Shown here in pieces: positions 44,869 to 57,562 of a DNA stretch of 64,000 nt. The notes beneath the pieces were generated by a model, which was given only the letters and a program-made list of their open reading frames with translations, ran no database searches and had not been told where the DNA came from. Location: positions 69,259-133,258 of the forward strand of contig VMGC01000003.1 of assembly GCA_007376385.1 (NCBI GenBank), given 5' to 3'. Origin of the DNA: Parcubacteria group bacterium Gr01-1014_8 (GTDB lineage Bacteria > Patescibacteriota > Minisyncoccia > Phycocordibacterales > UBA2100). Numbering within the stretch: position 1 is the stretch's first letter; each line of letters opens with the position of its first letter. The position numbers and the translations under genes are program-made.

Positions 44869-45195
44869 TTATTTTCCCCCGCTGCCTCCGCTTCCTCCGG
44901 CACAGCCATCACAACAATCACCTGCGCCAGCGTCACCTGCATCACCTGCATCACCTGCGCAGCCTCCACACCCACCGTCGCTGCAACCATCCGACGTGCA
45001 ACTCGAACAACTCGAACAACTGCCCGGGGCATCGGCGCGCGCCACATCAGAATTTCCTAAAACTCGCTCGCCGCCTCCCCCTCCAAATACGCGCGGCGCA
45101 ATGACAGTAAGAAGCACGATGACAGCACCGAGGAACAGTAACCCCGCATTCCGGATCGCCTTATATCCTCGCTGGGAGATGCGTACAATAGCCAT
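44869..45195 (-). CDS. Small protein with one TM helix and a Gly/Ser/Cys/Asp-rich C-terminal core; candidate RiPP precursor
   Basis: Core SCSSCSSCTSDGCSDGGCGGCAGDAGDAGDAGAGDCCDGCAGGSGGSGGK resembles microcin-B17/TOMM-type cores; lies in the island with YcaO and SagB-type genes. Confidence 0.5.
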   Translation of the reverse strand: MAIVRISQRGYKAIRNAGLLFLGAVIVLLTVIAPRVFGGGGGERVLGNSDVARADAPGSCSSCSSCTSDGCSDGGCGGCAGDAGDAGDAGAGDCCDGCAGGSGGSGGK

Positions 45196-45269
45196 AGCGA
45201 AAGTATATCAGTACACAGCACAATATCCGCGCCTTATGTGGATATGTACTTCCACCCTATCTCGCCCTG

Positions 45270-54863: not shown

Positions 54864-57562
54864 TGCCGTATACTGCAGGAGTGGAGCTCTTCTCGCGGCA
54901 TCGCACGAAGTTTTTATACGGCGCTGCCGGCATTTCGGCATTCCTGATTGCCGCAAGCATCGTGTATCCCCCTCTGTGGCTGCTCGTTTTTGCGGCCCCC
55001 GCGCCTTTCTTCGCGGCCCTTCTCTCGCGTGAGATCGTTTCTTCCCGCATACATGCCATAACTGCGGGATCCGTATTCGGCATCGTCTTCAACGGCGTCA
55101 TCAATGCAAGCGGATGGGCAGTATACCCCCTCGACTGGATAGGGGTCGACGCTCCCTTGCTTTCAGCGGCGATGATCGGCATTGCCTGGATCTTGCTTTC
55201 ATGTCTGATGGGGATTACCAGCGCATTTTTTGCATTGCTCATTTTCGAGATAAGAAATCGGCACCACTCCGATATTTTTCTGATCTCAAGTATTGGCATC
55301 ATTTGGCTCATTGCCGAATCGTTCCGCGTGTTCCTCTTTTCCATCTTTATGCTTGGTGCGGAAAGCGGCCTCGATATTGGATTCTCCCTCGGCTCGGTCG
55401 GATATGCGTTCGGAAATGCATCAAGCGAATTTTGGATAGCTCTCGCCAGGTGGGGAGGTGTTGCCCTCCTCTCGCTGTTTCCCATTCTGCTTGCAGCAAG
55501 CTTATCCTTCGCCATCGCCGCATGTATACGCAAAAAAAATGGAGTGCGTCGGTACCTCCTGTTATCGGGTGCCATTCTGTTCGTATTCCTCGGCAGTTCA
55601 GCTGCCGCAAGCTTTGCCGCCGAGCGGGCTCGCGGTTCAACAAGTGCCTGGAAAGATACTCCAAAACTGACGATCGTGATGGCGCAAACGAATTTTCCTG
55701 CTCAACTCACGCTGAGCACTGAAGAAAACGCCGAGCGGACGGATGTTGTCTTTGACATCGCAGAAACGCTGAAACGGCTTGCCATCAAACCCGACGCGCT
55801 CATCCTACCGGAGGGCATAGGATCTCGCATCGATCTATCGAACTACGCCGCGATATCCGAACTTTTGCCGGATAAGACATTACTCGTTCATGGAAAATAC
55901 GAACACCGTATCGGGAAGCCGTCCGTCGTACAAGTCCGCTCGCACGTTATCGGAGGCGGTACAGAGGTCACTGACAAGCAATTCATCATTCCATACGGCG
56001 AATACCCTCCCTATCATCTGCAGCTGCCCTTGAAGTACCTCAACTACCGGCTTTACGCGGCTTTAAAAAAGAATCGAGAGTACGTCGGCGGAAACAACGT
56101 TGCTCTCGGCAGTGCGGCAAAGATACCGGTAGGAGTGCGGATGTGTTCGGAAATATTTTCTTCACGGCTCTACAAAGACTTAACAGCTACGCATGGTGCG
56201 GGAATCCTCGTGCATTCATCTTCAATTGCCATGTTCCACGACTCAAATTTTATCCAGCGGGAAATGCGCTCGGCGGCGCGCATCCGAGCTGTCGAGAATC
56301 GCGTCCCGCTCGTGCAAGCCATGAACGGTGCGCGCGGAACTGCTTTTGATTGCCGCGGAAAAGAGCTTATCCCCGAATTCTCATCCGCACTTTTCAACGT
56401 ATATTCCATTTCACGCGAAGCATCGTGCGTAGGAGAAAATGTCAACGAGCGGGCGCGACCTGCACAAAGCCGGCTCTCATGGAATAAAAAAATGAAAGCC
56501 GCAGCTTTACATGCGTGGTATTCGCTCTTTCCGGAACAGGCCGCTAAAAAGCTCGGTGGTCTGAACATGATGCAGATAAGTATACGGGAAACAGAACTCG
56601 AATATTGGATGCGGATTTTCGGTTACAAGAACATTTTTGACGAGATAGAGAAAGACGGTTTAGATCCCCTGCAACGGCCCGCTGATGCGCGCGTCGTTGT
56701 CGGCCAATGTCACACGCAAGCTCACTATGCGGGGCGGATGGCTGTAAAATTGTTTAACCTGTCAGCACTCACCGAAAATATTATTGATATTCGATGTGGA
56801 TTCGGCTTTTATCACGGGATCATAGAAGCCTCGCTCGGAAATTTGGGAAGTGATAGAAACGTCAAATCATTTTCCGAGAAGTGCCAAGCATATGGAGATA
56901 ACCCCCTGCGTCGAGCCTCCTGCTTACACGCACTTGGCCATGGTCTCATGGTGTTCTACAATTACGACCTTCCAACGGTGCTCGAAAAATGCAGTTCTCT
57001 CCCCTCATCAGATCTTGGAAAAAAGCTGTGCTACCACGGGGCTTTTATGGAAAATATTTTCTCTGATCTGGGATTCGGTGTGTCAGAGCACGAATCGGAG
57101 TGGATAGGCGGAAGCGATCCGGACTTCCCTTGCGTGGCAAAATCCCTCGATTCACTACCAGCCGCAGTACGGGAGCAGTGTTATGCGAATCAATCTCTTG
57201 TGTGGGGTTTAAAGCGCGGCGGATTTGACTTTAACAACGCACAGACAGGCTGCGTGCGTGCACCACGAGAAGTAAGAGATATGTGCTTCATCGCAATCGG
57301 CTATAACGCAGCATTGCCAATAGCGCATGCCGACGAGAGAAAGGTTATCGAAGGGTGCGCAACTATGCCGGGATCTTCCTATGAAAAAAAATGTCTTGTG
57401 GGCGCATTGCTGATCCGCAGCACATTGTGGCCATCAGAAGCAGGTCTGAAAAACCCTCTATTTTGTTCCGCTCTCGGATATAACGACCTTGCACTGTGTG
57501 AAAATTTCGTCAAAGAAACGCTCGATTGGATATTCGAAACAGAAAAGGAGCCTGCACGTTAA
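54863..57562 (+). CDS. Fusion: Lnt-like polytopic membrane plus carbon-nitrogen hydrolase (apolipoprotein N-acyltransferase-like) domain, joined to C-terminal Cys-repeat modules paralogous to the upstream gene (ORF-track start 54773; ATGA-coupled start at 54863 preferred)
   Basis: About 8 N-terminal TM helices; CN-hydrolase triad context ILPEG ... K ... VRMCSEIF; C-terminal CQAYGDNPLRRASCLHALGHGLMVFY-type repeats. Confidence 0.6.
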   Translation: MPYTAGVELFSRHRTKFLYGAAGISAFLIAASIVYPPLWLLVFAAPAPFFAALLSREIVSSRIHAITAGSVFGIVFNGVINASGWAVYPLDWIGVDAPLLSAAMIGIAWILLSCLMGITSAFFALLIFEIRNRHHSDIFLISSIGIIWLIAESFRVFLFSIFMLGAESGLDIGFSLGSVGYAFGNASSEFWIALARWGGVALLSLFPILLAASLSFAIAACIRKKNGVRRYLLLSGAILFVFLGSSAAASFAAERARGSTSAWKDTPKLTIVMAQTNFPAQLTLSTEENAERTDVVFDIAETLKRLAIKPDALILPEGIGSRIDLSNYAAISELLPDKTLLVHGKYEHRIGKPSVVQVRSHVIGGGTEVTDKQFIIPYGEYPPYHLQLPLKYLNYRLYAALKKNREYVGGNNVALGSAAKIPVGVRMCSEIFSSRLYKDLTATHGAGILVHSSSIAMFHDSNFIQREMRSAARIRAVENRVPLVQAMNGARGTAFDCRGKELIPEFSSALFNVYSISREASCVGENVNERARPAQSRLSWNKKMKAAALHAWYSLFPEQAAKKLGGLNMMQISIRETELEYWMRIFGYKNIFDEIEKDGLDPLQRPADARVVVGQCHTQAHYAGRMAVKLFNLSALTENIIDIRCGFGFYHGIIEASLGNLGSDRNVKSFSEKCQAYGDNPLRRASCLHALGHGLMVFYNYDLPTVLEKCSSLPSSDLGKKLCYHGAFMENIFSDLGFGVSEHESEWIGGSDPDFPCVAKSLDSLPAAVREQCYANQSLVWGLKRGGFDFNNAQTGCVRAPREVRDMCFIAIGYNAALPIAHADERKVIEGCATMPGSSYEKKCLVGALLIRSTLWPSEAGLKNPLFCSALGYNDLALCENFVKETLDWIFETEKEPAR

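Follow-up and report, generated by a model that had tools for sequence, protein, structure and literature searches.

A gene cluster built around a YcaO-domain enzyme, a SagB-type dehydrogenase and a small peptide rich in Gly, Ser, Cys and Asp (PRE) lies in the 64,000-nt stretch of DNA analysed here (the window), which comes from Parcubacteria group bacterium Gr01-1014_8, a tiny groundwater bacterium. Our best reading of the cluster is an atypical pathway of the linear azol(in)e-containing peptide (LAP) or thiazole/oxazole-modified microcin (TOMM) kind, conserved in a Parcubacteria/Paceibacteria clade of the Candidate Phyla Radiation (CPR) and acting on a signal-anchored peptide. A preliminary description of the window, made from its letters, had called the genome CPR-like and had listed the open reading frames (ORFs) of the cluster. 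At 100% identity the YcaO matches a protein of Gr01-1014_8, so the call was right, and every one of the listed ORFs was found in place.

Gene content and genomic setting

The cluster fills the whole interval between the ribosomal protein genes rplC and rpsJ, from 41.06 to 57.61 kb (Table 1). These two genes are normally adjacent, and theirs is among the most conserved gene adjacencies in bacteria; the genes for L4, L23, L2 and S19 lie downstream of rplC. The preliminary description had drawn the island too narrowly, missing both the ribosomal-operon context and a conserved left arm (41415–44863), which adds four envelope-protein genes from 41415 onwards. All four (g144, g340, TPR288 and g380) are co-directional with the PRE gene and with rplC. 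Because the GC content of the island is the same as that of its surroundings, and no tRNA gene was found in the window, the island is not a recent mobile insertion.

For comparison we assembled 52 distinct CPR loci (designated L with a number) whose YcaOs are 29–53% identical, many of them truncated, and clustered all of their ORFs. The consensus gene order, read from the L3 gene, is g144, g340, TPR protein, (rhodanese, DsbA-like protein), g380 and PRE, all pointing towards and in line with L3, followed on the opposite strand by YcaO, SagB, PRT-PQQ and (a membrane protein with a GCAACG motif), and then by S10 in the orientation of L3; the genes in brackets are present in some loci.

Table 1 Features of the cluster and its borders. 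Positions are those of the window; the last column gives the number of the 52 related CPR loci with a member of the family.
Feature	Position	Strand	Description	Loci
rplC	40450..41058	-	Ribosomal protein L3, left edge of the block; Pfam Ribosomal_L3 on public gene call	
g144	41415..41849	-	144 aa; N-terminal signal-like helix and C-terminal membrane helix	12
g340	41854..42876	-	Membrane-anchored, Cys- and Ser/Thr-rich, predicted to face outside; one membrane helix	22
TPR288	42858..43724	-	Membrane-anchored tetratricopeptide-repeat (TPR) protein; Pfam TPR_19, TPR_17, TPR_2; one N-terminal helix	34
g380	43721..44863	-	Membrane-anchored all-alpha TPR-like solenoid; gene starts 5 nt past PRE stop	32
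PRE	44869..45195	-	Precursor-like peptide, 108 aa; membrane helix and Gly/Ser/Cys/Asp core	41
mem397	45270..46463	-	Polytopic in the membrane (5 or more hydrophobic segments); Cys, Lys and His residues invariant	11
PRT-PQQ	46462..48171	+	Orotate-phosphoribosyltransferase (PRTase)-like domain and 8-bladed PQQ-like beta-propeller; Pfam/NCBIfam; start perhaps 46531 (public gene call)	29
YcaO	48217..49644	+	Standalone YcaO-domain enzyme, predicted ATP-dependent cyclodehydratase, 475 aa; Pfam, NCBIfam, AlphaFold2, Foldseek	
SagB	49647..50375	+	SagB-type FMN dehydrogenase, nitroreductase fold; starts 2 nt past YcaO stop; TIGR03605	48
pep66	50473..50673	-	Small secreted Cys-rich basic protein; Sec-type signal; mature part basic, 7 Cys	
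CapK/PaaK-like 1	50923..52200	-	Adenylate-forming enzyme, accessory; NCBIfam DVU1553_fam_AMP 147.6 bits (cut-off 300)	8 (pair)
CapK/PaaK-like 2	52197..53564	-	Adenylate-forming enzyme, accessory; NCBIfam below cut-off; faint CapK_C Pfam match on public gene call	8 (pair)
g480	53421..54863	+	Membrane-anchored Cys-rich domain ('CysDom') protein; public start 53598	13 (Cys-rich domain)
Lnt-like	54773..57562	+	Polytopic Lnt-like CN-hydrolase/N-acyltransferase domain and C-terminal CysDom; public start 54863	13 (Cys-rich domain)
rpsJ	57610..58005	-	Ribosomal protein S10, right edge of the block; Pfam Ribosomal_S10 on public gene call	

The YcaO and SagB enzymes

The YcaO matches Pfam PF02624 with 152 bits (cut-off 25.7), and its best NCBIfam match, by far the top family, is the SagD-type model TIGR03604 (186.6 bits). 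Against TIGR00702 it scores 61.8 bits, under the cut-off of 75.65; this model describes the YcaO-type kinase domain and is not specific for E. coli-type proteins, and since the YcaO of L060, a Bacillus pacificus TOMM locus analysed with the same tools as a control, also stays under the cut-off (72.6 bits), it fails to separate the two types and serves as a proxy test only. The score against TIGR03266 (McrA-glycine thioamidation) is 77.5 bits and does not reach the equivalog cut-off of 365. Both ExxER ATP/Mg motifs (E114/E117/R118 and E234/E237/R238) are invariant across 24 YcaO homologs, as is, fully or nearly so, the P-H-P-F of the C-terminus (PHPFV).

An AlphaFold2 model of the enzyme (pLDDT 92.8) has an intact YcaO fold, with a small N-terminal alpha/beta domain at residues 1–75 (beta-alpha-alpha-beta-alpha-beta). 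The top Foldseek match of the model is LynD, an azoline-forming cyanobactin heterocyclase (E 7e-21, TM 0.70), followed by MusD (7u58), archaeal thioamide YcaOs, TruD, E. coli YcaO and McbD (6gri_D, E 3e-13); a profile search of the PDB returned MusD, TruD, LynD and archaeal YcaOs. Relatives number several hundred, with 297 representatives (50% identity) at E <= 1e-30. Near-full-length relatives are mostly 430–518 aa long, and because none is longer than 518 aa among the 150 best matches listed, none of these carries an E1-like fusion.

The SagB protein scores 123.7 bits against TIGR03605, above the curated cut-off of 78.4. Three motifs, YPSGGALYP, Lys-Tyr and LLEAGH, show conservation across 51 family members, and conserved sequence also reaches upstream of the shorter public start. 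The gene is beside YcaO in 48 of the 52 loci. With TIGR03604 as the best family, TIGR00702 under its cut-off, SagB above its own and LynD as the top structure, the pair is TOMM/LAP-like and not E. coli-type, as the preliminary description had proposed. We found neither an E. coli-type YcaO, so far as the TIGR00702 proxy can tell, nor a merely generic nitroreductase.

A family of precursor-like peptides

From its basic N-terminus PRE continues through a membrane helix and a spacer to the motif VARADAP; its core of 51 aa contains 9 Cys, 10 Ser/Thr, 18 Gly and 7 Asp. Members of its family lie at a median of 82 bp from YcaO, and within 500 bp in 33 loci; the distance in the window is 3 kb because mem397 and PRT-PQQ lie between. 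Throughout the family the N-terminus is basic, often with MVAI or MAIV at its start, and a single hydrophobic helix ending in P-[R/K] is followed by a spacer of 11–26 residues and the motif (V)A-H-A-D-[A/T/V]-P, of which VARADAP is the window's version. The core is hypervariable, ranging from 20 to 95 residues with 2–22 Cys (median 42 aa with 7 Cys). In pooled cores Gly makes up 31%, Ser 16.5%, Cys 15.6%, Asp 12% and Ala 10.6%, and Lys, Arg and His are nearly absent. A conserved leader joined to a variable core is the usual pattern of peptides that are made by the ribosome and modified after translation (RiPPs), and the PRE family, with its conserved leader and hypervariable core, thus bears a RiPP-like signature. 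The core-coding part of the PRE gene contains three 9-bp tandem repeats, which would fit rapid variation of the core.

Lys and Arg are more frequent on the N-terminal than on the C-terminal side of the helix (mean 3.1 vs 1.4; N > C in 18 of 24 precursors), and this positive-inside bias predicts an N-in/C-out orientation. The family carries no annotation: among 5.8 billion proteins a profile search matched 12, all of them unnamed or labelled 'hypothetical protein', and PRE has no match in NCBIfam or Pfam. Judged from these sequence features, 44869–45195 is a very good precursor candidate, and the proposal of the preliminary description that it is one is supported by the presence of the family beside YcaO in 41 of the 52 related loci.

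Some variants carry large C-terminal extensions, for example in L006 and L041. In the latter (L041:9077-9787, minus strand) a precursor-like leader and a Gly/Asp/Cys core are fused to an autoprocessing domain of the Hint/intein type (Hom_end_hint, 32.8 bits, cut-off 32.1), a layout that suggests release of the core at its C-terminus through a thioester.

The preliminary description had pointed to two small Cys-rich peptides around the enzyme pair. Both ORFs exist, but the second, pep66, is not the main precursor candidate; from its sequence it looks like a secreted, disulfide-bonded protein and not a YcaO substrate. A promoter-like site for pep66 was found at 50827-50799, with 11 of 12 positions matched. 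A first BLAST search had left pep66 seemingly unique to this genome, which proved to be an artefact of sensitivity: pairwise alignment revealed that L002, the closest relative, has a homolog in the corresponding place (E 4e-8), and a composition search gave pep66-like small proteins in ~10 loci. Small proteins with a Sec signal and 6–12 Cys, several of them basic, recur in the clusters (50473-50673 in the window; L002:12153-12401; L006, L007, L015, L023, L025, L030, L052 and L054).

Absence of an E1-like partner and a candidate third subunit

Searches with Pfam and NCBIfam detected no E1-like/ThiF-like protein, TfuA, ABC exporter or peptidase in any island protein, and BLAST with the Bacillus SagC found no SagC-like partner in any of the 52 CPR loci. 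Because the same search does recover a C protein, standing alone or fused, from 13 non-CPR TOMM loci, the missing partner is a real feature of the clade. The absence of an E1-like partner, an exporter and a recognisable peptidase, noted in the preliminary description, therefore holds in the window and, as regards SagC-like proteins, in the whole comparative set. The control locus L060 has SagC directly upstream, a SagD-type YcaO (348 bits against TIGR03604), SagB and an ABC exporter. Partner-independent YcaOs do exist, such as those of bottromycin biosynthesis.

The fusion of a PRTase domain to a beta-propeller, PRT-PQQ, ends 45 nt upstream of YcaO on the same strand, in one operon with YcaO and SagB; the domain matches and this spacing agree with the co-transcribed fusion that had been described from the sequence. 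The protein is predicted to be cytoplasmic and keeps the phosphoribosyl pyrophosphate (PRPP) loop, with RKSRK and VDDLINxG conserved in 28 family members. The typical order in other loci is YcaO, SagB, PRT-PQQ with overlapping stop and start codons. PRT-PQQ, often translationally coupled to YcaO and SagB, is a candidate third subunit.

Variation among related clusters

Of the 52 loci, 16 have L3 or S10 in the retrieved flank, as do nine of the 23 for which at least 8 kb are available on both sides; S10 flanks related clusters in nine loci. Many related clusters are situated away from ribosomal genes (for example L019, L010 and L016). The possibility that cluster and ribosomal operon were inherited vertically together was considered and rejected: in 11 loci the pairwise identities of L3+L4 and of YcaO are uncorrelated (Mantel r 0.20, p ~0.22), a test that paralogy may confound. 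The same comparison supports neither a single ancient insertion nor repeated insertion. Two or three paralogous YcaO/precursor clusters stand close together in L009, L016, L023, L025, L035 and L038, and L015 and L018 share one contig, which indicates duplication and diversification.

A subclade formed by L052 and L054 lacks SagB; its precursors keep the leader (FALADAP) and have a Cys-free core of Gly, Asp, Thr and Ser, and the YcaO has PHLFH at its end. The L054 cluster (9896-12705) is co-directional within an S10-to-L3 interval, beside a TagF-like glycerophosphotransferase.

Genes for a membrane-anchored DsbA-like protein (CPYC) and a rhodanese are found between the TPR gene and g380 in 9–11 loci, the membrane-anchored rhodanese in 11, and a GCAACG-motif membrane protein with several hydrophobic segments follows PRT-PQQ in nine. 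Together these proteins (in L005, L008, L014, L015, L022-L025, L032 and others) look like an extracytoplasmic thiol-redox module, which is absent from the window.

Envelope proteins and other genes of the island

An N-terminal membrane anchor is present in each of g144, g340, TPR288, g380 and g480; YcaO, SagB and the CapK-like enzymes have no membrane helices. The hydrophobic segments of g144, which has no match in Pfam or NCBIfam, are at residues 9 and 100, and the family adjoins rplC in 10 of its 12 loci. The g340 family always occurs within the arm g340-TPR-g380-precursor. The fold of g380 resembles the peptide-binding modules of Rap, AimR, MalT and APPBP2, and g380 is predicted from this likeness to be a peptide-binding scaffold. 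More distant loci have, where g380 would stand, a membrane-anchored protein combining papain-like (C70 / C39_PA2778-like, weak matches) and TPR parts; that g380 is a diverged form of this protein was rejected, with an hhalign probability of 10% and no homology past the membrane helix. The mem397 family is usually paired with the PRT-PQQ gene. Its one Pfam hint, to the lumenal domain of vitamin-K carboxylase, is non-significant (E 0.16, in 1 of 11 members) and a PDB profile search was empty; we did not adopt an HTTM/vitamin-K-carboxylase-like identity and left mem397 unassigned. The flanking TPR and polytopic membrane proteins of the preliminary description are present, as TPR288, mem397 and the Lnt-like protein.

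The two PaaK-like adenylating enzymes reported there are likewise present. From their scores they are generic CapK/PaaK-like adenylate-forming enzymes, far under every equivalog cut-off (TIGR02155, PaaK: 100.4 and 41.2 bits, cut-off 646). The Lnt-like fusion scores 90.2 bits against TIGR00546 (cut-off 132.9), aligned over positions 4–394 of the 395 of the model, and the Glu, Lys and Cys motifs, read by eye, are LPEG, DKQFIIPYGEYPP and RMCSEIF; the Lnt-like fusion noted earlier is present, and we class it by sequence as an Lnt-like CN-hydrolase, not a confirmed Lnt, as the equivalog cut-off is missed. The idea, also put forward earlier, that the product could be acylated or lipidated is weak, as it relies on accessory genes: the Lnt-like part recurs solely in L002 and L019 (three related genomes in all) and the CapK pair in eight loci. 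The protein g480 (53598-54863), which has no Pfam or NCBIfam match, and the C-terminal third of the Lnt-like protein (56700-57562) share a Cys/His-rich domain with repeated C...GHG-type motifs; this domain, found in 13 loci, is without family assignment.

Just upstream of rplC (41217-41350, minus strand) a promoter-like TTGACT-17-TATAGT is followed by a hairpin with seven G-C pairs and a T run, a stretch without a family match in Rfam. A separate promoter and an attenuator-like leader thus seem to serve the L3-L4-L23-L2 genes, from which rpsJ is now 16.5 kb away. The only known RNA element that Rfam recognised in the window is a tmRNA gene (4902-5292; tag peptide ANKTARGVLSPIQAKDLGLVFA). A second insertion in the tuf-rpsJ-rplC stretch, at 58000-62300, has a low GC content (0.41–0.45 vs ~0.50 elsewhere) and encodes a DUF2000 protein, a cupin-like ORF and a RusA Holliday-junction resolvase. 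The block is probably what is left of a mobile element or prophage.

Relation to known systems

Clusters of this general kind have been reported before in CPR bacteria, contrary to the suggestion in the preliminary description that the architecture was not described for such organisms. Sharrar et al. (2020, mBio; PMC7298704) presented a CPR LAP cluster with a YcaO, a nitroreductase, a peptidase and an adjacent 84-aa Ser/Cys-rich precursor, and gave a tally of 110 such clusters across 93 further CPR genomes, among them 51 from Parcubacteria. With its YcaO beside a nitroreductase-type dehydrogenase and an adjacent small Ser/Cys-rich ORF, the cluster in the window very probably belongs to that set or to its kin. 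Their report, however, is a brief antiSMASH-level account of one Microgenomates example. It mentions neither a leader with a membrane helix nor an AHADAP motif, and does not cover the missing C protein, the PRTase-propeller, the envelope arm and the location between rpsJ and rplC. A 2025 survey (PMC12153355) again listed YcaO clusters in CPR, and speculated about methyl-coenzyme M reductase (MCR) thioamidation. YcaO/nitroreductase LAP-type clusters in CPR are, then, known already. In the literature we found no description of the membrane-helix/AHADAP precursor family, of the clade-wide lack of a C protein, of the PRTase-propeller, of the conserved envelope arm or of the rpsJ-rplC placement, and a search on S10-operon placement in CPR and on membrane-anchored YcaO precursors returned nothing relevant.

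The microcin B17 synthetase McbBCD likewise brings a YcaO (McbD, a significant structural match to the YcaO of the window) and an FMN dehydrogenase (McbC) to bear on a Gly/Ser/Cys-rich core, that of McbA, but there the E1-like leader-binding McbB, absent from the CPR cluster, is essential. The leader of McbA is soluble and its core is not acidic, unlike the membrane-helix leader and acidic core of PRE, and the Mcb operon has export and immunity genes, McbEFG. The Balh-type and streptolysin-S-type TOMM systems (SagBCD) of the Bacillus cereus group use the same D and B enzyme families. The control L060 thus shares YcaO, SagB and a C-terminal PHPFP, but differs in its upstream SagC, its ABC transporter and its far higher YcaO score. 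Among solved structures the cyanobactin heterocyclases LynD and TruD, and MusD, come closest, and they also head the PDB profile matches; they are ~775–784 aa long, with fused N-terminal E1-like/RiPP recognition element (RRE) domains, whereas the 475-aa CPR YcaO has an unrelated short N-terminal domain, and identity is 16–18%.

Two further classes may follow the same logic, in which Cys is heterocyclised in the cytoplasm while the precursor still bears, as its leader, a signal for export or anchoring. Bufferins have metal-binding products and Sec-signal RiPP precursors that are modified before export (PMC11626156), and DAG-RiPPs have lipoprotein-signal precursors that are modified before export and matured by Lgt, Lsp and Lnt (PMC13056109). 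By analogy with these, the helix of PRE may serve as both leader and anchor. The enzymes differ, however, being MNIO/DUF692 proteins with a partner in place of YcaO and SagB, and PRE has a long spacer between its helix and the AXA-like site and no lipobox.

Weighing the alternatives

From sequence comparison, we think it reasonably probable that YcaO and SagB install azol(in)es in the 44869–45195 peptide. Several points weigh against this reading. The YcaO falls short of the curated TIGR03604 cut-off (219.25 bits), which the control Bacillus YcaO clears with ease; no partner or RRE was found for it, and the order of elements in its N-terminal domain differs from the usual RRE topology. Its C-terminal PxPxP is represented in the CPR clade only by P-H-P-F-[A/V/S/T/C], which lacks the third Pro; the ends seen at canonical TOMM loci are PHPFP or variants such as PHPLA and PHFFL. 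PRT-PQQ is absent from ~40% of the loci, and the AXA-like AHA site, 11–26 aa past the helix, is too distant for a typical signal-peptidase site. Finally, the SagB-less L052/L054 subclade with its Cys-free cores means that azoles cannot be the universal chemistry of the wider family.

The last point also bears on the idea that the YcaO performs another amide activation on PRE, such as thioamidation, formation of an amidine or macrocycle, or ATP-dependent backbone cleavage, with the nitroreductase-fold protein in another redox role. Archaeal thioamide-forming YcaOs are structurally almost as near as LynD, the second structural match, MusD, was deposited as a YcaO with ATP-dependent peptidase activity, and the missing E1-like partner and the rhodanese genes of 11 related clusters would fit such a chemistry as well. 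We nonetheless regard it as unlikely: SagB, beside YcaO in 48 of 52 loci, is above a cut-off curated for peptide dehydrogenases, the thioamidation model TIGR03266 scores far below its own, TfuA was not detected among the island proteins, the window has no rhodanese, whose predicted location is outside the cell, and the cores are as dense in Cys and Ser as those of known LAPs.

It may instead be that PRE is no RiPP precursor at all, but a membrane-anchored, metallothionein-like surface protein rich in Cys and Asp and handled by the TPR and thiol-redox proteins, with YcaO and SagB as mere neighbours acting on an unrelated substrate. Its acidic, Cys-rich core, the lack of exporter and immunity genes, the extracytoplasmic DsbA-like, rhodanese and GCAACG-motif proteins of 9–11 clusters, and the large C-terminal extensions of some variants (L006 and the Hint fusion of L041) would all suit a protein of this kind. 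Yet PRE keeps its place near YcaO, at that median of 82 bp in 41 loci, across homologs that are just 29–53% identical, and this reading is quite unlikely because so lasting a closeness to a peptide-modifying pair would be difficult to account for if the genes were functionally unconnected.

That the S10-operon position is itself functional, with YcaO and SagB modifying a ribosomal or other housekeeping protein and the small peptide unrelated, is highly improbable: rplC or rpsJ does flank the cluster in 16 of 52 loci (nine of 23 with long flanks), and for E. coli YcaO a connection with S12 has been reported and an origin of the uL16 thioamide from it suggested (PMC7550191), but many clusters are distant from ribosomal genes, a dedicated peptide gene accompanies YcaO wherever the cluster sits, the partners are mostly envelope proteins, and the YcaO is under the cut-off of TIGR00702, a model not specific to the E. 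coli type.

Proposed pathway and its implications

For an azol(in)e-forming pathway we infer the following steps. The substrate would be the 108-aa product of 44869–45195, which, because it is short (~100 aa, and released at about the time its helix emerges), would be finished and released before membrane targeting. Early release from the ribosome would leave time for cyclodehydration and oxidation in the cytoplasm, where YcaO, SagB, PRT-PQQ and the CapK-like enzymes are all predicted to reside, before the tail is translocated. There the standalone YcaO would use ATP to cyclodehydrate the Cys, and possibly the Ser/Thr, of the Gly/Ser/Cys/Asp tail to azolines, which the SagB-type flavoprotein would oxidise to thiazoles and oxazoles. 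Recognition would proceed without an E1-like/RRE partner, through conserved leader elements (the N-terminal segment and AHADAP), and candidates for reading the leader are the N-terminal domain of YcaO, the co-operonic PRTase-propeller and the membrane TPR proteins.

The basic N-terminus and single helix would then act as a signal anchor (N-in, C-out) and expose the modified acidic tail outside the cell. On that side the two TPR-type proteins, with g340 and g144, may bind or process the tail, possibly cleaving it after AHA, since AHA-DAP resembles an AXA cleavage site; in other genomes the DsbA-like protein, the rhodanese and the papain-like-TPR protein may join in this processing. The product would be an acidic polyazole peptide, on the cell surface or freed from it, with a possible role in metal binding, in host or cell interaction, or as an antibiotic. 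We hold the particular downstream steps and the biological role with much lower confidence than the formation of azol(in)es.

A bolder proposal, which we regard as possible but rather unlikely, is that RiPP chemistry has here been recruited for the core envelope biology of ultra-small symbionts: a growth-coupled pathway in a ribosomal operon would build an acidic polyazole peptide, anchored in the membrane or displayed on the surface, for metal capture or host contact, not as an antibiotic, and a new recognition partner, either the PRTase-beta-propeller or a membrane TPR protein, would replace the E1-like/RRE protein on which canonical azoline-forming TOMM YcaOs depend.

CPR genomes are minimal, and their organisms cannot be cultured alone. 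A cluster of up to ~16 kb is a large investment because of this economy, and its repeated placement between rpsJ and rplC is itself unusual. Were the peptide an ordinary secreted LAP antibiotic, the cluster would be one well-described example from a class that had been noted in CPR before. If the proposed pathway is true, it would be the first YcaO/SagB system whose precursor leader includes a membrane anchor, one that works without an E1-like/RRE partner and possibly involves a PRPP-dependent enzyme. It would then offer a new leader/core scaffold for azole-peptide engineering, and a testable handle on the envelope or host-interaction biology of CPR bacteria.

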